From: an uncultured Verrucomicrobiae bacterium | GTDB taxonomy: Bacteria > Verrucomicrobiota > Verrucomicrobiia > Limisphaerales > UBA11358 | DNA: 64,000 bases | Assembly: GCA_963769285.1 (NCBI GenBank) | Contig: CAVYLE010000005.1 | Coordinates: forward strand, 115,235 to 179,234 | Reading direction: 5' to 3' | In this document: positions 34,488-61,143 of the stretch, piece after piece | Layout: every line of letters begins with the position of its first letter | Position numbering within the stretch: the first letter of the stretch is position 1 | Made by a program: the position numbers and the translations under genes | Notes under the pieces: model-generated | What the model saw: the letters and a program-made list of their open reading frames with translations, nothing else | Told to the model about the DNA's origin: nothing | The model's database searches: none

Positions 34488-34528
34488 GCCGACGTGGCGG
34501 AATTGGCAGACGCGCCAGACTCAAAATC
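34488..34528 (+). repeat. 5' half of tRNA-Leu(CAA); left attachment site of the island
   Basis: GCCGACGTGGCGGAATTGGCAGACGCGCCAGACTCAAAATC, 40/41 identical to 51610-51650. Confidence 0.92.
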
Positions 34529-40223: not shown

Positions 40224-41987
40224 TCAGGATGGAATCGTTATCCCACAGGCAGTTAATTTCGCGAGAAGAATTTCCATGCTCAATGTTTCGTTGTGTATCC
40301 AACAAATCAGCGTGATGCCATTGTCTCCGCATTTTTTAGCTTTAAGTTGGTCGCGCTGCCGGGTTCGCGCCAAACCTTCTTCCCCGCCAAAAACAGCGAC
40401 GTTTTCAAAGTGTTGTTGACCTTGATATTCAAACCCAACTTTTATTGAAGGCACGTAGCAATCCAAGTGCTGCGGATTTAGCCAATCCGGCTGCGAGTGC
40501 AACTCGGCATCTGGAAATTTTTTCTGGATCAGACGGAACATTCGCATTTCCGAGACCCAACCCTCGCCGATACGTGGTAAGCCGTGACGTTCTCGAAGCA
40601 AATTCTCGGCTTCCCTGAGCACCTCTTCTACCAATTCTACAAAGGGATTTTCCACTTCTGAACTGGTGATTGTCCGATGACGAATAAGATCAATTTCGTA
40701 GAATACTTTCCCCTCAATGGTGTGCTGTCGTCCGGTGAATCGAATGCCGTTGGTTCCAAATGAAGACTTCTCAATTTCGTTCAATGAAGTAATGGCAGCG
40801 AACTCAGGCTTGCGCGGCCCGCGAAATCGCCGACGCCATGATTTCGGAAAATAACCTTCAATCATGTTTATGTGAAGGCCACAAGCGTAAACATGATCGT
40901 CGCAAAACGCAGGAGAGTAGTTTGTCCAGAGACCAGTGTATTCAGAATCCTCAATTGACTTCTCGACTCGACAATGCCGGATTTGATCTGGATAACGGTC
41001 AAAGAGTCTGCCTTCCGGGCAAGAGTCGTATTGGGCTGAAAAATTCACCGGCGTGAAGTCTCGCTTCACTTCGCCGTCGAGGAGGAATGCACCAAAATGC
41101 CAGTCGTGGCGCCGGGCTTCAATCATCTGTTCCATCGTTGGGGCGTGTTTCAATATGATGTCCAAGGGTTGCTCCTGTCCGGAATCCCGGCAGCGAGTCA
41201 ATGCGATATCAATACATTCAACGTATTCAGCCAAGTTTTGCTTCAGAAATTCGTCACATGACGACTCGCTCCTGAAAAACAACAGGTCTCGCCCAGCAAG
41301 CGGAATCCGTGACAGTCGCTTCAGATAAATCAGCTCGCTCGTCAACTCACCGTAGAACTTGCTGCCAAGGCTTTCGTAATAGGCTGTAACCGCTGCTGTA
41401 CCTGCACCTGCTGCAATAAGCTCGTGAATATGTTTGATGTAGGCAACCGGCTCTGTTGACAGAGGTTTTGTTGCGGGAATAGCCTTCATTGTTTCGTAGT
41501 CGAAGCCATCCAAGCAACCTTCTGCTTTGAGCTTTTGTTGCACAGCCAACATATCTCGGCTTATTCCATTAACGTATGTGTCGCGTATAAATTTCGACAA
41601 CTCTGCCCCAGACTTGCCTGTGCTGTGCTCGATTTCTTGAAGGCACTGTTTGATGCGAGCGGATTGGTTGGATGCTGGCGACCAACCCTGACGCCCATCC
41701 GACTTCTTGCACGCCAAATACAAACGGATTGGCTCAACTCCATGAAGCTTTGGTCTGGGCAGTTTTCTGGCAAGAAGATAAAGTCGGTGCATCAAATCAA
41801 TTTGCTCACCGGAAAATGAAACGATGTGCCAAACATCAGTCCCTTCCCCGCGAACTTCGTGACGAGCGGCAAGCGAAGCGAGTTCCAAGGCATGAGGGTA
41901 AAACTTGCTGCGCTTGGAAATGCCGAAATGGATATGGAATTCTTGGCTCGTAATTGCGGGAGTTGTTTCGGCTTCCGGCGGCGGCAT
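40224..41987 (-). CDS. Hypothetical protein with C-terminal PD-(D/E)xK-like endonuclease domain
   Basis: WVSE...LDCYVPSIKVGFEYQGQQHF...RDQLKAKKC; visibly more AT-rich than neighbours. Confidence 0.6.
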   Translation of the reverse strand: MPPPEAETTPAITSQEFHIHFGISKRSKFYPHALELASLAARHEVRGEGTDVWHIVSFSGEQIDLMHRLYLLARKLPRPKLHGVEPIRLYLACKKSDGRQGWSPASNQSARIKQCLQEIEHSTGKSGAELSKFIRDTYVNGISRDMLAVQQKLKAEGCLDGFDYETMKAIPATKPLSTEPVAYIKHIHELIAAGAGTAAVTAYYESLGSKFYGELTSELIYLKRLSRIPLAGRDLLFFRSESSCDEFLKQNLAEYVECIDIALTRCRDSGQEQPLDIILKHAPTMEQMIEARRHDWHFGAFLLDGEVKRDFTPVNFSAQYDSCPEGRLFDRYPDQIRHCRVEKSIEDSEYTGLWTNYSPAFCDDHVYACGLHINMIEGYFPKSWRRRFRGPRKPEFAAITSLNEIEKSSFGTNGIRFTGRQHTIEGKVFYEIDLIRHRTITSSEVENPFVELVEEVLREAENLLRERHGLPRIGEGWVSEMRMFRLIQKKFPDAELHSQPDWLNPQHLDCYVPSIKVGFEYQGQQHFENVAVFGGEEGLARTRQRDQLKAKKCGDNGITLICWIHNETLSMEILLAKLTACGITIPS

Positions 41988-51609: not shown

Positions 51610-51696
51610 GCCGATGTGGCGGAATTGGCAGACGCGCCAGACTCAAAATCTGGTACTCGTGAGAGTGTGTGGGTTCGACCCCCTCCGTCGGCACCA
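51610..51696 (+). tRNA. tRNA-Leu(CAA)
   Basis: Acceptor GCCGATG/CGTCGGC, anticodon arm CCAGA-CTCAAAA-TCTGG, long variable arm, GGTTCGACCC T-arm, encoded CCA. Confidence 0.96.
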
Positions 51697-51823
51697 GGGC
51701 TTTCCGGGCGTAACGCATGTTGATTCTGTCCGGTTTTATTTTGTAACTCTTCCAAATCATCCGGGCAGCAGGTAACGCGCCCCGTTTTTCGGAGCGCGAA
51801 AATCAATCCGCGAACCCGCCGCG

Positions 51824-52990
51824 CTATCGGCGCGAACCGTTCGCGGACGCCTTGCGGCGAACGGCGGCGCGTTCAATCGCCGCCGCCAAAGCTGCATCGG
51901 ATGGCATCACGCCAGTTTTGACGGCGCGCTGAATGTCCTGCCATTCGGCTCTAGCCCGTCCATCCTGACTGGCCAGGTAAATCGCTTGCTTCACAGTGTG
52001 CTCAATAGCAGCAACGCCTTTCTGGGATAGGTTTGCCACATCGGCCAAGACTTCGAGGGATCGTTGATTGCCATGCGGCAGCCAGGCCCGCGCAACTTTT
52101 TCCAAATCGGCGATGCTCAGGCTTTCCGGCAGAACGATATATTTTTCAATCCGACCGACGAACTGGCTTGCTGCCCAACCACTCTTGTCAACGTAATCGG
52201 CTTGCGTGTTAAAAAATTGCGGCGTCACCAGTAAGGCCACGCTCGCGCCTTGATTGATCAAACCTGTCATCAACCACGAAATGCGCGATGGACGGGCGAG
52301 CCGATAGTTATGGCTTGGGTATAGATTTGCCGCCTCGTCCACGACCAACAGAACGTCACCGGCCTGCAACGCCGCTTCGATTCGGGGGCGCAGGTTTTTC
52401 GTTTTGGCATTACTCTCGATTGTGATTCCAAGCGCGCGGGCTATCGCGGTGAAAAATGCCAGGTTATCCGCGCTACTCGGCGTTTGAACATATCTGGCGC
52501 GGCCCGGATGTTGCTCAATCCAGTGTTGCGCGGCCCAGGTTTTACCCAAACGCGGCTTGCCGGAGATCAACACCAGACAACGTGATTGACTGCAATAATC
52601 CAAGGCTTCACATACAACGCGCCCAACTTCCGTAACTACGACGCCTTCACTTTTTTGACGCGTGTAATCGGCCATCAATTGCCGCACTTTCGGAAGCACG
52701 GATTGCAAGTCGAGATTCGTTTCCGGGTTCAGGCACAATCCGGCGAGCCATTTCTCTTGATCCGATCCGTTCAAAAATTCCGGCGCGATTTCCGCCGCTG
52801 CCCAACGCAAGCCGCCGCCATACATGCTTAAATGCTGGATGAACCAAACCGCTTCGCGCTGTTCTGCGGATTCCAGGACAGACGCGCGGGCCGCAACCAA
52901 ATTAGCCTTGAGCGCCCGATCCAATACGGAAGATGAAGCCCACCTTTCTTGATGGAAAGCGCCGTTTTGATTTGTGCGGGTGCCAGGCAT
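51824..52990 (-). CDS. MuB/TnsC-like AAA+ transposition ATPase
   Basis: Walker A GKPRLGKT, Walker B LLVVDEA; directly downstream of the transposase. Confidence 0.8.
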   Translation of the reverse strand: MPGTRTNQNGAFHQERWASSSVLDRALKANLVAARASVLESAEQREAVWFIQHLSMYGGGLRWAAAEIAPEFLNGSDQEKWLAGLCLNPETNLDLQSVLPKVRQLMADYTRQKSEGVVVTEVGRVVCEALDYCSQSRCLVLISGKPRLGKTWAAQHWIEQHPGRARYVQTPSSADNLAFFTAIARALGITIESNAKTKNLRPRIEAALQAGDVLLVVDEAANLYPSHNYRLARPSRISWLMTGLINQGASVALLVTPQFFNTQADYVDKSGWAASQFVGRIEKYIVLPESLSIADLEKVARAWLPHGNQRSLEVLADVANLSQKGVAAIEHTVKQAIYLASQDGRARAEWQDIQRAVKTGVMPSDAALAAAIERAAVRRKASANGSRR

Positions 52991-52992
52991 GA

Positions 52993-55593
52993 TTAAACAA
53001 ATATTTCAGGATGCTCCCGATCAAACTTTTCAACTTCCGCCATTTTTGCGGTGAGTTCAGCGCGGCGTACAGCGCGTCCTTCAACCTCTCGCTCGTGCGC
53101 CATTTCGTCCGCTGTTTCTTCCAAAAGCCTTTGCGTCAGACGTGACGTGCTGGCCTCTTTGCCGTCCCGCATGGTTTTCTTCCCGGTGCTGTCACATTCA
53201 ATGATGCCGATTGATTCCAGTGCCTTCACTTCGCTTTTTGAATATCCACTGCGACCGCCGGGCATCACTGTGCGGACCTCGCGCCGCATAGCAACTTGCG
53301 TCTGTTGCTTGGCCTTAAGGCCATCTGTGCCGGCGTCGTCTCCCCACCCCAACATCAAGCGGATGTAACCCGTGGTTTCGTTGACCTGGTTGAGTGGAGG
53401 CAATACCTCACCGGCGCGATGGTCATTCCATGCTTGCATCAATACCGGCGTGGCCAAACATTTGGGCGCGGTTGGGTCGAAGTGCAGCCGCATCTTTGCC
53501 CCTGAAAATTCCGGCAACCAAGGCGCTGAGAAATCGAATGGCACGGACATGTCCTCGAAGATCGGCACGCGACCACCGACAATCATCCCGCGCACAGTCC
53601 ATTCAATGGCGTAGGGTGCAAACATGAACATCTTGACCTCGTCCACCTTGCGCAGCGCGCGTTCCGCCGTCTCGCGTTGCCAACGGTCCTCCGGCACCCA
53701 TTGGCCGGAGTTGCGCGATTTGACAAGGGTGCGGTTCTCTTCCTCGGTGATCTCCGCGAACGCGGCCAGCGCATCCGACAACGTTGGAAAATACCGGCGC
53801 GGGTCAGTGGCCCCCCGCCGGCATGATTGCATCAGCTTGTTTGCGGCTTCGGTGTCGCCCCGGTAACGCCCAATGTCGCATTGCGGAAAATGCACCGAGA
53901 GCTTGGTCCAGTCCTGGTTAAACCCGCCCTCGATAAACGGCTTGCTGTGCGGCGATACCACCGTATGCAGCCGCGAGCCGAGTAATTCGATAGCGTGCTT
54001 CACCAGGTGGCTTTTGAACACGCCGCGCTCAAATCGGTACTGCTCCCATGCGCCATGCTGAATTGTGAGGCCGTGCAGGAGGGTGAGCACGTCCGCGCCT
54101 CGAAAGCCGCCGCGCGAGCGCGCCACAAAAACCCAGCCTGGCCGATAACGGCTGGCAACGTCAATAGTACGAAGCCATTGGAAGCGCCCGACTATGACGC
54201 CGAATTTTACAGAACACGGCGTCTCCGTAATCAAGCCGCCGGTTGGCGAAGTCCACGGAATGCACACCGGGAAGTTGATGCTTCCATCGTCCGCTTCGAT
54301 GATGTCCCCGGCGCGGGCAAATTCCGGTTCACAGCCAGGCCGGCGCACCATCATCATCGTGCCAGGGCATTGTAAATTATTCAGTCCGGCTTCGTGCGGG
54401 CGGCGATAATTCTGAACAACCTGCCGTGAAACTTTCCACCGGATGGCGTTGGCAATACTGGCGGGCACCAGTGGTTGCCCGGCCTTTTCCCGTGCTAAAA
54501 TTGTTTCACGCAAATCATCCGGGCAGACCGGAATGGTTTTCTTCAAACCAACTTTTTTCAAGAAGCGGCGTTTGATGGTGTCTGTCCATCCGGCAGGAAG
54601 ATTCGGTAACGAGACGACACGCCGGATAGCTTCCGGCGTCGAGCCGGTGTCGTGGGTCCTGTTGGTGATGAGGTAGAAAAACTCTGCCGCCGGAAGAAAC
54701 CAGGGGAGCGACTTGATCTGCCCCGTCAATTCAGATTCTTTTGCTCCTTTGTTCCCGGCCCGCTTGTCGAAAGCCTCCTTGGACTGCCAGCGTTCACGCT
54801 TGCGATTGTAAGTCTTGAGCAAGCCGTCCTGTGATGTTGCCAGGCTTGGCGCACGCTCAGTAATGACGGCTCTCAACAGTCGCGCGGCACGGTTGCGCGG
54901 TTGGCCCGCATTGACCATTTGCGCCTCAATCTCAAAAGCCTTTTCAAAAATTTTATCCGCTGATGCGCCGGCATTGATCGTGGACACCAAGGCGGGAAAT
55001 TGCTCATTTAATTCAGTAACTCCCCGTTTTCGGTCCGGCTTGGCGGGCAGGTAAAGAGCAAGGTTCGCCCAATCCTCCCGCCCCCCGTCCCGCTGCACCG
55101 TGCGCCGGATCAATTCACGAAAATGGCGCGTAGTGATTTTCTGGCCGAAAACTTTTTCCCAATCCTTTACCCCGTCGTGTTCAAAGTCCGCCTGGCTGGT
55201 GACAAACTGCCGCCGCAATGATGGCAGCAACGCTTGCTTGCTTTTGTTCGTTTCCGTCAAACAGACATCGGATATTTCAGACATCGGAACGGGGGAAATC
55301 CACGCCGTAACGCCGGCTTTGACCATGTCTTCAACACTGGCGAAACCTCGACGGCCCGCCAGTCGTGACAAGCGCGAGCGCAACCTGTCAGGCAATCGAG
55401 CGTGTTCCCAAGTGTCGGCGGGATTGCCGGTAACTGTGCGCTTGCCGGTAGCAGGAACAGAGCGAAGTTGTTTCCGAATGGCTTGAGGGCTGATTCCCAA
55501 ATGAGCCGCGATCTCCGCCGCCGTCAGAGCAACCCATGATAAGCCCACTTCCCCGGCGGTGAATGTCTGTGGAAGTTTTGAGTTCATAGCCAA
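52993..55593 (-). CDS. MuA-like DDE transposase
   Basis: N-terminal HTH TAAEIAAHLGISPQAIRK; RNase H core IIEADDG, TIDVASR, RFERG, SKPFIEGGF. Confidence 0.8.
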   Translation of the reverse strand: MAMNSKLPQTFTAGEVGLSWVALTAAEIAAHLGISPQAIRKQLRSVPATGKRTVTGNPADTWEHARLPDRLRSRLSRLAGRRGFASVEDMVKAGVTAWISPVPMSEISDVCLTETNKSKQALLPSLRRQFVTSQADFEHDGVKDWEKVFGQKITTRHFRELIRRTVQRDGGREDWANLALYLPAKPDRKRGVTELNEQFPALVSTINAGASADKIFEKAFEIEAQMVNAGQPRNRAARLLRAVITERAPSLATSQDGLLKTYNRKRERWQSKEAFDKRAGNKGAKESELTGQIKSLPWFLPAAEFFYLITNRTHDTGSTPEAIRRVVSLPNLPAGWTDTIKRRFLKKVGLKKTIPVCPDDLRETILAREKAGQPLVPASIANAIRWKVSRQVVQNYRRPHEAGLNNLQCPGTMMMVRRPGCEPEFARAGDIIEADDGSINFPVCIPWTSPTGGLITETPCSVKFGVIVGRFQWLRTIDVASRYRPGWVFVARSRGGFRGADVLTLLHGLTIQHGAWEQYRFERGVFKSHLVKHAIELLGSRLHTVVSPHSKPFIEGGFNQDWTKLSVHFPQCDIGRYRGDTEAANKLMQSCRRGATDPRRYFPTLSDALAAFAEITEEENRTLVKSRNSGQWVPEDRWQRETAERALRKVDEVKMFMFAPYAIEWTVRGMIVGGRVPIFEDMSVPFDFSAPWLPEFSGAKMRLHFDPTAPKCLATPVLMQAWNDHRAGEVLPPLNQVNETTGYIRLMLGWGDDAGTDGLKAKQQTQVAMRREVRTVMPGGRSGYSKSEVKALESIGIIECDSTGKKTMRDGKEASTSRLTQRLLEETADEMAHEREVEGRAVRRAELTAKMAEVEKFDREHPEIFV

Positions 55594-55596
55594 ACA

Positions 55597-57045
55597 TCAA
55601 ATTAAATTGACGAGGCTGTGGTTGGCATCGCCGCCGCCGGCAAGTTGCCCGGAAATCTTATTCAGTGCCGATACTGTGCGGTCAATGCCAGTCGCCATCC
55701 GGCGGTTAAGTTCGAGGATCGGATTTGCGCCGCCCATGACAAAACCCATTTTCTCAAAAGCATTGGCCTCCGGCTTATAATGTTGGCCGGTGGCTTCAAG
55801 AGCATCGCCGGGTTTATTTTTGTCAGGAGCTTCACCAGTCTGCCCGGCCAGATTCTTGGCGCGGCCACGAAGGCCGGCAATCATGCTCATAAACTTGTCC
55901 TGCTCAGGACCGCCAGAATTTTTGAACGCATCGGCAAGGGCGCCAGCCTGCTCTTTCACACCCCCGGCGATGGACTGCGCGCCTGAATAAGTCATGTTCG
56001 CAGCAGAATATTTGCCCAGCCCTTTTTCCATCCCCGCCATATTGTTTTGGTAAAGGTCTTTCCAGCTTTTAGACGGGTGCAAAACTTTTTCAATGGTGGC
56101 AGCATTGGCCGCTATCCAGGCTTCCGAAACGGTCATCATGGTTCCCAATGCAACTAAAAATTCACCCTTCATTACATCCCATATTCCCTTCCAATATTCA
56201 CCAGACCCAAAAAGACCGGTTATGAAATTTGACGCTTTTTCCGCTCCCGCTATAAAGCCTTGAGCAAGAACATCGCCGATAGCGCCTTCCTTGAAAATCT
56301 CGGCGATGGTCAAAATCGTTTCGCCGACAGTGCGCGCAACGCGGGAGAAATCAATTTTGGAAACGACATTAATAATGCTTTGGATAATTGGTAAAAGTTG
56401 CGTTGCGGCCTCAGTCCAGATCGCGTCAATTTCCATCCCGACGTATTTCAGTGACCGCTCGAATTTGTCGGCCAGCGGTGCCAGCTTTTCCCAAAGGGCG
56501 GCGTAGCGTTGCCCTTTTGCAATTGCCTCGGAAAATTCCGCGTTGGAACGTGCGAGTTGAACCACTTGGCCCGCTGCCTCGCGTCCAAAAAGCTGTCCGG
56601 CAGCACTGGCGGCGGCGGTGGTGTTCAGCTTCGCCAGCGCGCCGGCAATAGCCTGAAGCTGCGCCGGAGCATTCATCTTCTTGAGCGCGTCAATGCTCAA
56701 TCCCATGCGATGGAAAACGCTCTTGGTGTCCACCCCGTATTCGTTCACGCCGCCAAGCGCCTTTTGCGTCTTGAACAAAATCGGCCCTACGGCGTCAGCT
56801 TCAAGTCCCACGGCTTGAAACCCGCGCCCCAGCTTGTATAAGTCGCCAATGGACGTGTCGGTCCTCTTATGGAGGTGCTCCAACGCCGCCCCGCGCTCGA
56901 TTTGAGACATGACACCCTCGTACATGGCTCCAACGCTTACCAATCCGCCGATGAACCCTTTAAGCTTGGCACCGGCCACGCCGAGCGGACCGAGAAAGCC
57001 GCCCGCGCCAAGGCCAAGAGAAAATTGTAGGATGCCGCTATTCAT
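55597..57045 (-). CDS. Short phage tail tape-measure-like protein
   Basis: Ala/Gly-rich helical; VFHRMGLSIDALKKMNAPAQLQAIAGAL...AAGQLFGRE tape-measure-type motif. Confidence 0.75.
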   Translation of the reverse strand: MNSGILQFSLGLGAGGFLGPLGVAGAKLKGFIGGLVSVGAMYEGVMSQIERGAALEHLHKRTDTSIGDLYKLGRGFQAVGLEADAVGPILFKTQKALGGVNEYGVDTKSVFHRMGLSIDALKKMNAPAQLQAIAGALAKLNTTAAASAAGQLFGREAAGQVVQLARSNAEFSEAIAKGQRYAALWEKLAPLADKFERSLKYVGMEIDAIWTEAATQLLPIIQSIINVVSKIDFSRVARTVGETILTIAEIFKEGAIGDVLAQGFIAGAEKASNFITGLFGSGEYWKGIWDVMKGEFLVALGTMMTVSEAWIAANAATIEKVLHPSKSWKDLYQNNMAGMEKGLGKYSAANMTYSGAQSIAGGVKEQAGALADAFKNSGGPEQDKFMSMIAGLRGRAKNLAGQTGEAPDKNKPGDALEATGQHYKPEANAFEKMGFVMGGANPILELNRRMATGIDRTVSALNKISGQLAGGGDANHSLVNLI

Positions 57046-57055
57046 AGATTAATTT

Positions 57056-57625
57056 TTAGGGGTTTGACCGCCTTCTAAAATCCAACTGCCGCGCCTCGCG
57101 AGGGGGTAGAAGCGATTTTCCCCTGCCAGGACGTTGGATTGTGGCAGGAAGCGCCGTGGCGGGCGTTTTGTGAAACTGGCAGCGCGACAGAGCCGCCCTG
57201 CCCAACCATCGGTTTCTTAGAAAATCACGGAGTCCGGAGCTGGGAATAAACGCGCCGCCGGAACGCAGTTTTCCGGCGAGTTGATCGCGTAACTTCCCTA
57301 GCGTCGGACGCCGGACGCGCAACAATTGGCAGGCCTCACCAGCGTGGAAATTCTTCCTGTCGCCAAGAATCAGCGCAAGCACTTCGTCCAGTCTCAGGTT
57401 GCGAGTGGTTTCAGGTGCGATCACTTCGCGTGCAAGGAAGCGAAGGCAGCGAATTTTCCCTTTCGGGTTGACGGCAAAATTCCACACCCACTGCAAGCCA
57501 TCGCCGTCGGCCATTTCATAGACCACATCGGCTGAAACGCCGCGCACATCCATGACGCTGTTCGCGGTCATCAAGACTGTGCGGGGGTTCAGCGTGAGGG
57601 GCAATGTTGGGTTCGGCGAGTTCAT
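57056..57625 (-). CDS. Putative DNA-binding protein (excisionase/wHTH-like repeats)
   Basis: RGVSADVVYEMAD and FHAGEACQLLRVRRPTL HTH-like segments. Confidence 0.55.
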   Translation of the reverse strand: MNSPNPTLPLTLNPRTVLMTANSVMDVRGVSADVVYEMADGDGLQWVWNFAVNPKGKIRCLRFLAREVIAPETTRNLRLDEVLALILGDRKNFHAGEACQLLRVRRPTLGKLRDQLAGKLRSGGAFIPSSGLRDFLRNRWLGRAALSRCQFHKTPATALPATIQRPGRGKSLLPPREARQLDFRRRSNP

Positions 57626-57782
57626 TCAATTGTTTTCGGCGGGCGACATACATTGTTTTCCATTCGCCACCAGGGGGCTGAACTCATCCGCCATGAAACA
57701 CCGAAGAGGCGGACGAACCCCCAAGCGAATTGCAACACCGGGTTGCGCAATGTAAAATATCGCCGCGCCGAAAACGAGAAAG

Positions 57783-57814
57783 AGCCGGCGCGCCTTTTGA
57801 ATGACGCGCCGGCT
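57783..57814 (-). terminator. Intrinsic terminator/attenuator-like hairpin inside the leftward operon
   Basis: Perfect 10-bp stem AGCCGGCGCG/CGCGCCGGCT followed on the minus strand by CTTTCTCGTTTT. Confidence 0.5.
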
Positions 57815-57911
57815 TGGTGACGCGGATTGACTGCACTGCGCTTCCACCCGCAGTGTGAGTGTCAACCAACGAAAAAGTTTAAAATGTTTTTGTGGAAGTG
57901 CCACGGCTTGT

Positions 57912-58124
57912 TCAATTTCCTCCTCGCGCAATTCGATCCCGCAATTTCTGCATCCGAAAAATGAGCCGCCGGTGTAAACCGACAGACCGCTGGACATACT
58001 TGTCCGCCAACCAACAGGACCAGGCAATCCCCCAAGTTATGAGCCAAAGGCTCCAGAACTCGGCGTAAACAAGCGGCAGTGGCGCGCCGGAACTTTTTGT
58101 AATGGAAGTAAGCGGAGCCATCAA
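57912..58124 (-). CDS. Small membrane protein
   Basis: 70 aa, one Trp-rich hydrophobic helix with basic tail; start overlaps the upstream stop. Confidence 0.45.
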   Translation of the reverse strand: MMAPLTSITKSSGAPLPLVYAEFWSLWLITWGIAWSCWLADKYVQRSVGLHRRLIFRMQKLRDRIARGGN

Positions 58125-58558
58125 ACAAGTCCAAGCTCGCGAAGCGTCTCGCGATTTTCTTTTTTAAATTTTTCGAAATTGGCGCGGGCCTCCTCTGCCT
58201 CCGCCCTTGCTATTTTCACGATTTCGTCCCAATGATGCTTCGTGACGAAAGCGCCGGCAAGTTGCGCCGCAACCGATCGGATGTCACTCAAACCACTCTG
58301 TCCATCCCGAGCAGAGAAATAGATCGAACGCGCAATATCCGCTTCGCGGATTGTTCCATCCTTTTCACTCAAAATCTGAACATTCAGTTGACTATCCTCG
58401 GCCCGGCTCTGAAGCAATCGGAACTGCCGGACAATTTGTTCCTTTCTGGCCTCCTGTGCCTCGAAGGCCGAAAACCCGGTGGGGTTTTTTGCAATGTAAC
58501 GGTCCTTGAGGTCATTCAATTTATCGGCGATGAAATCATGGATGGTTTTGTCGGACAT
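58121..58558 (-). CDS. Hypothetical helical/coiled-coil protein
   Basis: 145 aa charged helical ORF right after the protease gene. Confidence 0.6.
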   Translation of the reverse strand: MSDKTIHDFIADKLNDLKDRYIAKNPTGFSAFEAQEARKEQIVRQFRLLQSRAEDSQLNVQILSEKDGTIREADIARSIYFSARDGQSGLSDIRSVAAQLAGAFVTKHHWDEIVKIARAEAEEARANFEKFKKENRETLRELGLV

Positions 58559-58584
58559 AAACTTTGATTGGTTGATTGGTTGAT

Positions 58585-59154
58585 TTATTCAGTCGAAAAA
58601 AACCGCAGGTCTTTTACCTTACCATTGGGCGTCAGTGCCACGCTGTGAATCATAATCACTTCGCGGTTGTCGTCGTTGAGTGCCGGGGAGAGATCCTCGA
58701 AGTTGCGGGCGTGCTGAACACCGAGTGGCGTCCAGGCGATTTCCTCCAGCCAGATGCCATCGCCGGGGACCAGGTTGACGCGACCGTAGCCGAAAATGAG
58801 CGGCGGTTGGCCGGCGGCAATAAATTCCTTGTGCGTGTCCGTGCCGGGCACGGTGCAATGATTGAAGTCAATCGCCACCCGTTCAAAGCCAAGCAGTTTC
58901 TGGTTGGCGGACAGTTTCGCGGAAGTTTTTTCGCCGACGCGATAGACGCCATCAATGGTGTCGTTGTCGCCGCAATTTAAAATTTTGATTCTGGACGGAA
59001 GCCGATCCCCCTTCAACGCGCCACTGGAAACCCGGAAAGTTTTGAGTTGATCCAACCCCAAATTTACGGCGAAAGGCGCGACGGCCATATTTTCAAAGTT
59101 GAAAATCTTGGCGATTCTATTGAATCCGGCGGCGGATTGTTGGGCGGGTGTCAT
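58585..59154 (-). CDS. Mu-like prophage I protein / head maturation protease domain (no scaffold tail)
   Basis: AIDFNH, IAWTPLG, LSPA, HSVALT motifs in the order typical of Mu_like_Pro. Confidence 0.72.
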   Translation of the reverse strand: MTPAQQSAAGFNRIAKIFNFENMAVAPFAVNLGLDQLKTFRVSSGALKGDRLPSRIKILNCGDNDTIDGVYRVGEKTSAKLSANQKLLGFERVAIDFNHCTVPGTDTHKEFIAAGQPPLIFGYGRVNLVPGDGIWLEEIAWTPLGVQHARNFEDLSPALNDDNREVIMIHSVALTPNGKVKDLRFFSTE

Positions 59155-59314
59155 TTATTTTTCCAGTTTGTGGCGACGCGGCGCAAGGCAACGTCTCAGG
59201 CCGCGCGGGCAAGTTGCCAGGTGTGGCGACGGGCTGGGCAACGTGGCGAAGCTGCTCCGCCAGATTGTCCGACCGGCGCGGATCGGGCGTTTTAATGCGC
59301 ATTTTTTTCATTTC

Positions 59315-59506
59315 TTATGCCAACCTCTTTTGCCTTGCTTTAAGTGCATCATAGCGAACGCGGAGCGGCGCGCTGGTGGCTTCGCCCCGTAAAACTTTGA
59401 ACAGGAAATTTCGACTTACATGGAGCTTCGCACTGTCCGACACGATGCCCGGGAATTGTGTTTTCCCGCGCGGCCTGCGCCTCAGAATGTTGTCACGTTG
59501 TGGCAT
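59315..59506 (-). CDS. Small Ner/Cro-like DNA-binding protein
   Basis: 63 aa basic, SAKLHVSRNFLFKVLRG HTH; divergent from the repressor. Confidence 0.65.
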   Translation of the reverse strand: MPQRDNILRRRPRGKTQFPGIVSDSAKLHVSRNFLFKVLRGEATSAPLRVRYDALKARQKRLA

Positions 59507-59515
59507 TTGATTAGC

Positions 59516-59544
59516 GATTTACACCAATTCCCAGACAATGTCAA
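59516..59544 (-). promoter_or_regulatory. Sigma70-like promoter of the leftward operon
   Basis: Minus strand TTGACA-N17-TAAATC just upstream of ATG 59506. Confidence 0.55.
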
Positions 59545-59587
59545 CTGGTCAATTCAACTTTTTTATGCCACTCTCCCCACACGAAAA

Positions 59588-60232
59588 ATGCTAAAGAAAA
59601 GTCCTAGAACTGAGGCTGAAGCTGTTTGGGATCGCAAAATTGGAGCAGCACTCGCGTTTATTCGCAACCGGGATGCACAACAAACCCAGGCGGTTTTTGC
59701 CAAACGAATGGGCATTAGCCGAAGCCTCTTGGCGAACATCGAAAGAGGCCGGACCCCACTGACTGTTAGCGTTGGGGTGAATGCGTGCCGTATTTTTGAC
59801 ATTGACCCTCTTTGGCTCTGTCTGGGAGGAAAAGGCGGCGGCGGCGTCTTCCCTCCGATTCATGCCGACAAACTTGAAAAGATTGAAACTCACTTGCGAG
59901 CTGTCGGAAGTGCTCCGCTTCGTGCCGTGTGGCCTTCGCTGGTTTGGTTCATCCGGGAATCCGAGGGCGGGGATAAAAAAACATTTGACAGTATTACTTC
60001 TGAGAGTAATACTGAGGGGGTGAAATCTGAAATGCAAAAGTTGAGAGACGATCTTAAACGTGTGACTGCCAAGCCGGGTATGAAGGCGGCACTCGCGCGC
60101 TTTATGAAAGTTGATCCTCCCCGCGTTTCGGAATGGCTGGCCGGCCAGGAGCCGGGCGGTTCCTATGCTCTGAAGCTTCGTAAGTGGGCCGACGATCAAT
60201 TGGAGCAATCGGAACAAGAGCGTAAAAAATAA
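59588..60232 (+). CDS. XRE-family repressor with two HTH domains
   Basis: TQAVFAKRMGISRSLLANIERG and KAALARFMKVDPPRVSEWLAG. Confidence 0.8.
   Translation: MLKKSPRTEAEAVWDRKIGAALAFIRNRDAQQTQAVFAKRMGISRSLLANIERGRTPLTVSVGVNACRIFDIDPLWLCLGGKGGGGVFPPIHADKLEKIETHLRAVGSAPLRAVWPSLVWFIRESEGGDKKTFDSITSESNTEGVKSEMQKLRDDLKRVTAKPGMKAALARFMKVDPPRVSEWLAGQEPGGSYALKLRKWADDQLEQSEQERKK
59985..60013 (+). promoter_or_regulatory. Intragenic promoter overlapped by a palindromic operator
   Basis: TTGACA-N17-AATACT; AGTATTACT-N6-AGTAATACT perfect 9-bp inverted repeat. Confidence 0.6.
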
Positions 60233-60235
60233 AAA

Positions 60236-60266
60236 GCTGTGGCAGTGCTATGAACACTGCCACAGC
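60236..60266. terminator. 12-bp perfect hairpin after the repressor gene
   Basis: GCTGTGGCAGTG-CTATGAA-CACTGCCACAGC; A-run on its left gives a U-tail only on the minus strand. Confidence 0.5.
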
Positions 60267-60290
60267 GAAAGACCCGAATGAAGTCCTATT

Positions 60291-60584
60291 ATGAAACCGA
60301 CAAATCGAATCCAGTGGAACGGTAGCGCCAATGGCGCTGAAAAACAACCTCTAATCGGCAAATCAGTTGCAAAGACATCGGTCCGCATCACTGACGAGCG
60401 CTTGTTTGCTTCGCTGACTGCCGCCGCCAAAAGAGACCGCCGCACGGTGGCGAATTTTGTTTTGGTGCTGATTAAAAGAGCACAGCCCTTTTGGGAGAAG
60501 AAAGGCTGGGACAAAAATTATTTTAATGACTGGGCCGACGGTGTTTGCTTGCCGTTTTCGGTGTCCCCGTTTTGGCGTAGCTGA
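60291..60584 (+). CDS. Ribbon-helix-helix (Arc-like) protein
   Basis: TSVRITDERLFASLTAAAKRDRRTVANFVLVLI. Confidence 0.6.
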   Translation: MKPTNRIQWNGSANGAEKQPLIGKSVAKTSVRITDERLFASLTAAAKRDRRTVANFVLVLIKRAQPFWEKKGWDKNYFNDWADGVCLPFSVSPFWRS

Positions 60585-60612
60585 ACTGACTCCCGGTCCA
60601 ATCCGATCCCCC

Positions 60613-60648
60613 CGCCGCCCTGGTTGAATCCGGGCGGCGTTTTTCTTT
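60613..60648 (+). terminator. Rho-independent terminator
   Basis: CGCCGCCC...GGGCGGCG followed by TTTTTCTTT. Confidence 0.75.
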
Positions 60649-60689
60649 CCCGCCGATCCGCCGCGCCGATCCGGCGACCAGGCCGCGAA

Positions 60690-60727
60690 GCATCTGCACG
60701 GGCAGGTCGAGGGGCATCTGCACGGGC
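60690..60727 (+). repeat. Direct repeat GCATCTGCACGGGC x2 near the element end
   Basis: Exact 14-mers at 60690-60703 and 60714-60727. Confidence 0.8.
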
Positions 60728-61143
60728 TAAAACAAGGTTCCAGGTTCCACCCCCCGTCCGGTTTAGGTGTCTTTCTTCCAATTCATGCAAACCATTGCAA
60801 TTCAACCCCTTTTATTTTGGAAGCCCTCAGCGCCAACCCGGACACCCTTCAAAGTCCTTCGTCGAAATCCCTTGCCAAATCAAGGCTTTTGAAGCCTGAT
60901 AGCCCCTATTCGTGCCGGACAACATTAACCGCAATTCCACGGCGTTGTGCCTTCGCGCAACCACTTCCGGGCTGGCGGGTCAACGTATCCGGTCATTCAG
61001 AAATCTGGCCTTCGGCAGGCGGGCTTTGGCAACAGCTTTCCTTTCCTGCGGGCGGTTCGCAGCCGCTGCTTTTCGCAACTTGCGAGTTACCCGGGATTGG
61101 GTGTAGAATAGCAGCGCATTTGATTTTGCCAGCCGTCTTGCCT

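Follow-up and report, generated by a model that had tools for sequence, protein, structure and literature searches.

What is a phage head protease doing beside a phage tape measure protein (TMP) at a locus that lacks the rest of a virion? The question is raised by a 64,000-nt stretch of DNA from an uncultured Verrucomicrobiae bacterium (hereafter the window). At 55597..59154 of this stretch, an original prediction made from the letters alone had seen a possible module that remodels helper virions, composed of a protease without its scaffold, a separate coiled-coil protein and a short TMP. The three open reading frames (ORFs) proved real and had the claimed lengths (189, 145 and 482 aa, all on the minus strand). 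We favour the reading, with a rough probability of 0.52, that they are cargo of a tRNA-targeted transposon that probably lives as a satellite of Mu-like tailed phages. The broader notion, that an element resembling a satellite intervenes in the assembly of helper virions, found backing in a conserved mobile chassis and in relatives carrying head genes and TMPs, but its short-tail and split-scaffold parts did not hold.

A transposon inserted behind a tRNA gene

The element spans 51709..60939 (9,231 bp, with ends placed by comparison with relatives) and starts 12 bp downstream of a plus-strand tRNA-Leu(caa) gene (51610..51696), the target landmark, which lies outside it. An empty site was found in G011, a genome of the same genus, where the same tRNA-Leu is followed by 35 nt and then by the ortholog of window position 60968. 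The window flanks, less a 4-bp duplication, add up to 36 nt (12+28-4), and this matching spacing identifies the 9,231 bp as an insertion. The element holds a repressor, a Ner-like gene, cargo, the TMP, a Mu-type DDE transposase and an AAA ATPase. Protease and TMP are the only virion genes in these 9.2 kb, so that a full virion set is absent; the terminase, portal, capsid and other tail genes of a Mu-like phage found no match in the window. No integrase was matched among the 12 window ORFs scanned, the DDE transposase standing in its place. A second copy was not found in the 90%-complete assembly of the same genome.

The 388-aa AAA+ ATPase (51824..52990, minus strand) is MuB/TniB/TnsC-like (AAA_22 9e-12, TniB 5e-6, phrog_296 2e-20) and belongs to the type of the element family; BLAST against the full phage's own ATPase gave no match. 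The adjacent 866-aa transposase (52993..55593, minus strand), whose relatives match phrog_310 and Mu-transpos_C, is chimeric, with a junction near residue 280 between an element-type N-terminus and a phage-type catalytic region. Residues 20-280 share 29-40% identity with 16 element transposases, and identity to all element transposases drops to 10-23% beyond residue 280. Residues 281-810 are instead 71-86% identical to two full phages. D435, D436, D478, E522 and E555 were invariant in all 26 sequences compared, and the dN/dS of residues 401-807 was 0.07-0.11. Judged by its sequence, the chimera is a record of direct gene exchange with the putative helpers.

Among 162 other genomes of the genus, the transposase matched in 37, the element ATPase in 43, and the protease and TMP in 5 each. 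Twenty of the 45 other transposase places were fetched, with long contigs preferred and cargo disregarded. Transposase and ATPase occurred together in 19 of them; of these 19 elements 17 had a repressor match, and 14 were accompanied by a tRNA at the locus. Both ends could be placed for 14 of the 17 tRNA-linked elements, under the chosen constraint of the family's TGTA end, the other three being short of sequence or match. These 14 elements are 8.8-13.5 kb long, are bounded by terminal inverted repeats, and lie 12-16 nt from the CCA (14 nt in nine of them). The 4-bp target duplication was exact in eight, held at three of four positions in two and was poorer in four, and none of the 17 had an exact 5-bp duplication. 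Neither TniQ nor an integrase was matched in the 12 window ORFs or in 55 ORFs that were mostly the relatives', a scan that left out the tRNA-side ORFs near repressors listed for five relatives. A transposon family with a fixed tRNA distance is established by these sequence comparisons.

The insertion also bears on the idea that the locus is the remnant of a deleted Mu-like prophage. Every recognisable gene does have Mu-like phage homologs, and decayed relatives exist. The gene order differs, however, as in full phages transcription of the transposase points away from the head-tail operon, and its partner is a different ATPase of 343-345 aa. Moreover, the family-type ends, repressor and ATPase are common to insertions at tRNA-Val, -Arg, -Leu and -Asp. 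The empty site and the shared chassis largely refute a remnant, which we regard as highly improbable. Separately, L004, L005, L028, L032 and L049 group in one clade of Mu-like prophages that are scattered or decayed; their protease-scaffold gene is intact, with unrelated DNA between it and the capsid gene.

A tape measure protein of normal length

The 482-aa protein (55597..57045, minus strand) has the TMP homology that had been claimed for it. It matched phrog_8125 at 6e-8 and was 35% identical to one full-phage TMP over 508 columns; against the TMPs of Mu-like phages in general it is a same-length homolog with 32-37% identity. The GenBank phage collection yielded no match. The protein had been called short, and the length comparison proposed along with that claim spoke against it. 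The full-phage TMPs of its family measure 469, 473, 489, 496, 497, 518 and 559 aa, and 28 of 29 database homologs fall within 430-538 aa (265-844 aa searched). Six of the seven cognate phage TMPs are no more than about 40 aa longer or shorter than the window TMP, a difference of ~5 nm or less at 0.15 nm per residue. Tail shortening therefore lost its basis.

Window-family TMPs occur in eight compact elements (the window, L008, G153, L107, L108, L110, L111 and L112), and five of the seven strongest matches in an order-wide search were compact elements. In a quick tree the element TMPs were scattered among phage TMPs, with at least six forced changes. Around the TMPs of L111, L112, L113 and L107, chaperone-like genes upstream and distal-tail-like genes downstream were noted from position and by eye.

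The TMP gene is not contiguous with the other two. It is separated from the 145-aa gene by a 189-aa helix-turn-helix (HTH) gene, by small ORFs and by a hairpin that resembles a terminator. The HTH gene (57056..57625, minus strand; HTH_17 6e-4, under the cut-off) belongs to a 13-member cluster that is spread over elements and also present in two phages. The hairpin (57783..57814, minus strand), a consensus match only, separates the HTH gene from the 145-aa gene.

A protease without scaffold and an element-specific helical protein

In Mu, gpI is a protease with a C-terminal scaffold (Z). The 189-aa protein of the window (58585..59154, minus strand) matched PF10123 with 27.6 bits (cut-off 25.2) and also phrog_328. 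Its structure model aligned with the varicella-zoster virus protease (Z 8.4, root-mean-square deviation (rmsd) 3.0, 109 residues aligned) and with T4 gp21 (Z 6.2, rmsd 3.8, 115 aligned), while Foldseek returned nothing at E<=0.001. The protein had been described as ending right after its HSVALT motif. The motif occupies residues 170-175, and the ORF continues for 14 residues, stopping three past a conserved FF, which indicates that the domain is whole. The missing scaffold was confirmed, since full-phage relatives with a capsid gene next to them are ~345-447 aa long. An alignment of 40 sequences has 28 invariant columns, and the window protein retains every one. They include His99 and Ser156, which known motifs suggest to be catalytic. 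A dominant-negative decoy, also suggested in the original prediction, keeps some probability, but the retention of these two residues argues that the protein is no dead mimic. By homology it is a complete Mu-I-type domain, like gpI in its protease domain, predicted assemblin-like fold and conserved His and Ser, and unlike gpI in having no Z part.

The 145-aa protein (58121..58558, minus strand) is predicted to be helical, as had been supposed, at low confidence (pLDDT 49). Its suggested role as a split-off scaffold was rejected. The profile-profile probability against the scaffold was 0.15%, a scaffold hidden Markov model (HMM) matched nowhere in the window element, and homologs were found only in compact elements (two in G153, and L091, L040 and L020). 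Profile comparison also excluded Gam. In L020 the homolog again follows a scaffold-less protease; two elements holding homologs have no protease. A database search (79-254 aa) gave no homolog except the protein itself, and the Atlas no usable match. It appears to be an element-family accessory.

A transfer of the scaffold's C-terminal motif to the N-terminus of the window protease was considered and dropped, the motif not being significant there; it did score in P0006 and P0028, as well as in small ORFs within L107, G153 and L091. These results bear on the original version of the mechanism, in which a short TMP and a split scaffold would give smaller heads and shorter tails. The scaffold is indeed absent, a smaller head would be adequate for a genome of 9 kb, and other elements hold scaffold fragments or the C-terminal motif. 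With a TMP of the phage norm, a 145-aa protein unlike a scaffold and no significant motif in the window protease, we give this version very little credence. Elsewhere in the family, scaffold fragments or only a VD[LM]AAIF-like C-terminal motif were seen at L107 5991-6932, L067 13978-14175, L091 6307-6516 and L113 7119-8255, and such elements are possible capsid-size redirectors.

Slots for captured head and tail genes

The cargo of the relatives follows an order, with a Ner-like gene, a coiled-coil gene, a head gene, HTH genes and a large helical gene by the transposase. The head gene was recognised by HMM in 12 of the 19 elements, as a capsid gene in eight and a Mu-I protease in four. Four of the eight capsid genes are protease-capsid fusions of 646-660 aa. 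The helical gene, of roughly 400-700 aa, is present in 18 elements; one is a TMP by PHROG and the other 17 belong to a different family of 1,532 clusters at 50% identity, mostly of 450-600 aa among the top 150 and with a dN/dS of 0.16 for one pair. For this commonest family the ESM Atlas gave weak TMP leads only (0.91-0.92, 108-109 shared features), and no relative was found in viral contigs, searched with one member, or in the GenBank phage collection. In L124 a different TMP is accompanied by a portal and by an HK97-type protease domain that stands alone, and L122 has a Mu-I protease of 232 aa. Weak small-terminase matches were limited to L074 and L112.

Scaffold loss in the proteases needs at least five changes and left two multi-member clades (P0002/4/7 and P0036/L008), although some short protease entries in the database may be contig-end fragments. 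True TMPs, scaffold-less proteases and capsid genes were evidently captured repeatedly from a host-sharing phage family. As single observations, a complete chromosome contains a 12.3-kb element (L008 3078-15400) with an exact ACTT duplication; besides a capsid gene, a scaffold-less protease and a TMP, it carries on the reverse strand a gene homologous to a phage G-like gene. RadC/JAB-like ORFs, labelled by eye, lie within the elements of L040, L078, L086, L089 and L067.

A possible satellite of Mu-like phages

The full Mu-like phages of the same hosts (G001-G003, G067 and G159) are 30-38 kb long and carry terminase, portal, capsid and tail genes, so that the element is about one third to one quarter of their size. 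They are the probable helpers. No tRNA was found on the fetched full-phage contigs, and none of the viral-contig loci found via protease or TMP had the compact layout. G159 holds a full phage plus an element-type transposase and ATPase. Within the genus the element is in excess over full phages, its ATPase occurring in 43 of 162 genomes and the phage-type protease in 5. This excess, together with the repressor switch, the small size and the presence of virion genes without a packaging set, fits a satellite.

We propose that the repressor would keep the long operon silent until a helper phage is active. Transposase and ATPase would then copy the element, and the helper's terminase, portal and tail parts would package it. 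The element's TMP would replace that of the helper in these particles, giving a chimeric tail of normal length and different sequence, and the free protease, timed by the element itself, would mature or trim the proheads of the helper. After transfer, either the ATPase or the N-terminus of the transposase would direct insertion 12-16 bp behind a tRNA of the new host. As TMP length is unchanged, the benefit likely lies in sequence. With its own TMP the satellite would escape blocks aimed at the TMP, for example exclusion by the helper prophage or assembly inhibitors. Tab (PMC10884400) would be one such block. Exclusion proteins can act as blocks of this kind.

The same genes could instead form a defence island, in which a stand-alone TMP, protease or capsid poisons the assembly of infecting Mu-like phages and the element is not packaged. 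The window has single, variable morphogenesis genes without a packaging module, repeated gene capture fits an arms race, and Mu-like prophages are known to block tail assembly (Tab, PMC10884400, in the part available). Such a role agrees poorly, however, with cargo located in the transposase operon and kept behind a repressor, unlike a constitutive moron. The protease retains its conserved His and Ser, the TMP is of full length, and capsids in 8 of 19 elements, four of them 646-660-aa fusions with a protease, exceed what decoys need. We consider defence unlikely, though not negligible.

Several observations weigh against a satellite. A search of the 90%-complete assembly turned up no gene of a Mu-like helper, and the window element is without capsid, terminase small subunit and tail chaperone. 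The orientation of this copy is inverted relative to the family, CG replaces TG at the start of the ATPase-side terminal repeat (51709..51733, plus strand; possible damage, as relatives begin TG), and the flanks agree at three of four target positions. The repressor-side repeat (60915..60939, minus strand) begins with TG. Because of these irregularities and the chimeric transposase, the window copy may be no longer mobile. One DNA sequencing run contained only short exact pieces, which give no indication of mobility, and no RNA run was listed. In the relatives the cargo is highly variable and sometimes broken (L076 and L113), and decayed prophages of the Mu-like family exist (L004, L005 and L049). 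The commonest helical family had no profile match to the window TMP, and only one of 90 of its homologs matched a TMP PHROG, which makes the TMP label for this family one of position. The window protease has 16 non-synonymous and 10 synonymous private changes (5 and 10 in L020) and is altered at two near-invariant sites (N44S and W61C), which is compatible with relaxed selection. In the satellite's favour, its dN/dS was 0.12-0.16 against six relatives and 0.125 against the scaffold-less protease of L020, values whose pairwise paths nevertheless include time spent in phages.

Variable and sometimes broken cargo, with possible relaxed selection on the protease, would also be expected if the phage genes were functionless passengers that a tRNA-targeted transposon had gathered by recombining with Mu-like phage DNA nearby. 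Recent recombination between phage and element has already produced the transposase, given its identity to phages over residues 281-810. Mere passengers, however, would hardly keep to fixed slots and to genes for assembling heads and tails, as this cargo does. The reading frames are intact across saturated synonymous divergence, the helical family is large, and the scaffold-less clades persist. Passenger status therefore seems to us improbable, and we retain the satellite reading.

Comparison with known systems

Tn7-like transposons that target tRNA genes have a DDE transposase, an AAA ATPase, TG-ended repeats and a fixed tRNA distance, with TniQ/TnsD as target selector; the duplication of Tn7, like that of Mu, is 5 bp. 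The element family shares the first four features and differs in its 4-bp duplication, its phage repressor switch and its cargo of virion genes, and no TniQ/TnsD or TnsA match was found among the scanned ORFs. Mu-like phages of the same hosts likewise pair a DDE transposase with an adjacent ATPase. They appear to be the source of the protease, the TMP and the catalytic region of this copy's transposase, yet at 30-38 kb with full virion genes they have another ATPase and gene order. PICIs (phage-inducible chromosomal islands), like their cf-PICI relatives, carry a primase-type replication module and a terminase small subunit, neither of which was matched in the window ORFs.

In the available part of a 2024 review that defines phage satellites (PMC11389934), a satellite is not itself a phage and is a discrete mobile unit at a defined site; it encodes factors or signals that promote its own packaging, into particles made by a helper. 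The window element lacks a full virion gene set, and its empty site, its terminal repeats and the duplications of its relatives mark such a unit. The TMP, the protease and the capsids in relatives are factors that might favour packaging; no packaging signal was identified. The PICI-like elements (PLEs) of Vibrio cholerae also bring their own TMP. According to the part of PMC12987554 at hand, PLE virions incorporate this TMP and transduction depends on it, PLEs build chimeric tails on helper parts with an added chaperone, and some cf-PICIs have predicted tmp genes. PLEs, however, parasitise the lytic phage ICP1 and are drawn there with integrases, whereas the window element has a DDE transposase and AAA ATPase and no chaperone; the PLE11 TMP differs from that of ICP1 by 95 aa, whereas the window TMP matches phage length (PMC12987554). 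The EPIPs of Mycolicibacterium, as described in the accessible part of PMC12822802, are ~11-kb satellites with TMP, scaffold and capsid-type genes that parasitise a prophage. They resemble the window element in their own TMP and compact size and differ in a serine integrase, a terminase small subunit, head-tail connectors and longer tails, none of which was seen in the window. In the seen parts of both papers (PMC12987554, PMC12822802), satellites use integrases.

TMP-bearing satellites are thus already known, and the new part would be the Mu-type transposase combined with tRNA homing. No satellite of this kind appeared in the literature covered, namely titles and abstract openings with few subscription journals, or in the available part of PMC11389934. 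We tentatively suggest, at somewhat less than even odds, an undescribed satellite class with Mu-type transposition, tRNA homing without TniQ, an approximately eightfold excess over helpers, and re-captured TMP and head genes that build chimeric virions. If this is true, transposable phages have dedicated parasites that integrase-based satellite searches would overlook. PLEs raised the question of why a satellite should encode a TMP of its own, and the family would provide numerous independent natural tests of it; as TMP length equals that of the phage, what matters in them is likely sequence. Satellites aside, a transposon of two proteins that inserts 12-16 bp behind a tRNA, and for which no target selector could be recognised, represents a compact system for site-specific integration.

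Other features of the element and its surroundings

The repressor-like HTH_3 protein (59420..60232, plus strand; HTH_3 1e-9, phrog_4, phrog_8) probably starts downstream of the annotated position. Divergent from it is the Ner/Cro-like small gene (59315..59506, minus strand), which has homologs in other elements and is labelled from its position. A 64-aa ORF (59117..59311, minus strand) had no family match, and a 97-aa ORF (60291..60584, plus strand) is ribbon-helix-helix-like (RHH_5 0.002, under the cut-off). Near the repressor-side end, a 24-nt unit stands in two tandem copies (60679-60726), and the nearby 60613-60666 shares 87% identity with the corresponding position in L020. Together they are a possible binding or packaging site.

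Outside the element, the 5' 41 nt of the tRNA-Leu are repeated at 34488-34528, preceded there by the native upstream sequence, as it appears in G011. Judged by eye, the ~17 kb from there to the full tRNA (to 51610) encode what is probably a P-type ATPase, together with glycogen and acetate-kinase-like genes. This stretch, across which no integrase search was made, looks like a second island in the same tRNA. Elsewhere in the same genome, a phage-like region (L129, G000:C15, 4400-16500) encodes a terminase large subunit (PF03237) and, by eye, small-terminase-, primase- and portal-like ORFs, and is unrelated to the Mu-like family. Within the ~17-kb stretch, a low-GC segment (0.47-0.50) contains a 587-aa ORF (40224-41987) with a nuclease-like C-terminal motif, seen by eye, that is a possible defence gene.

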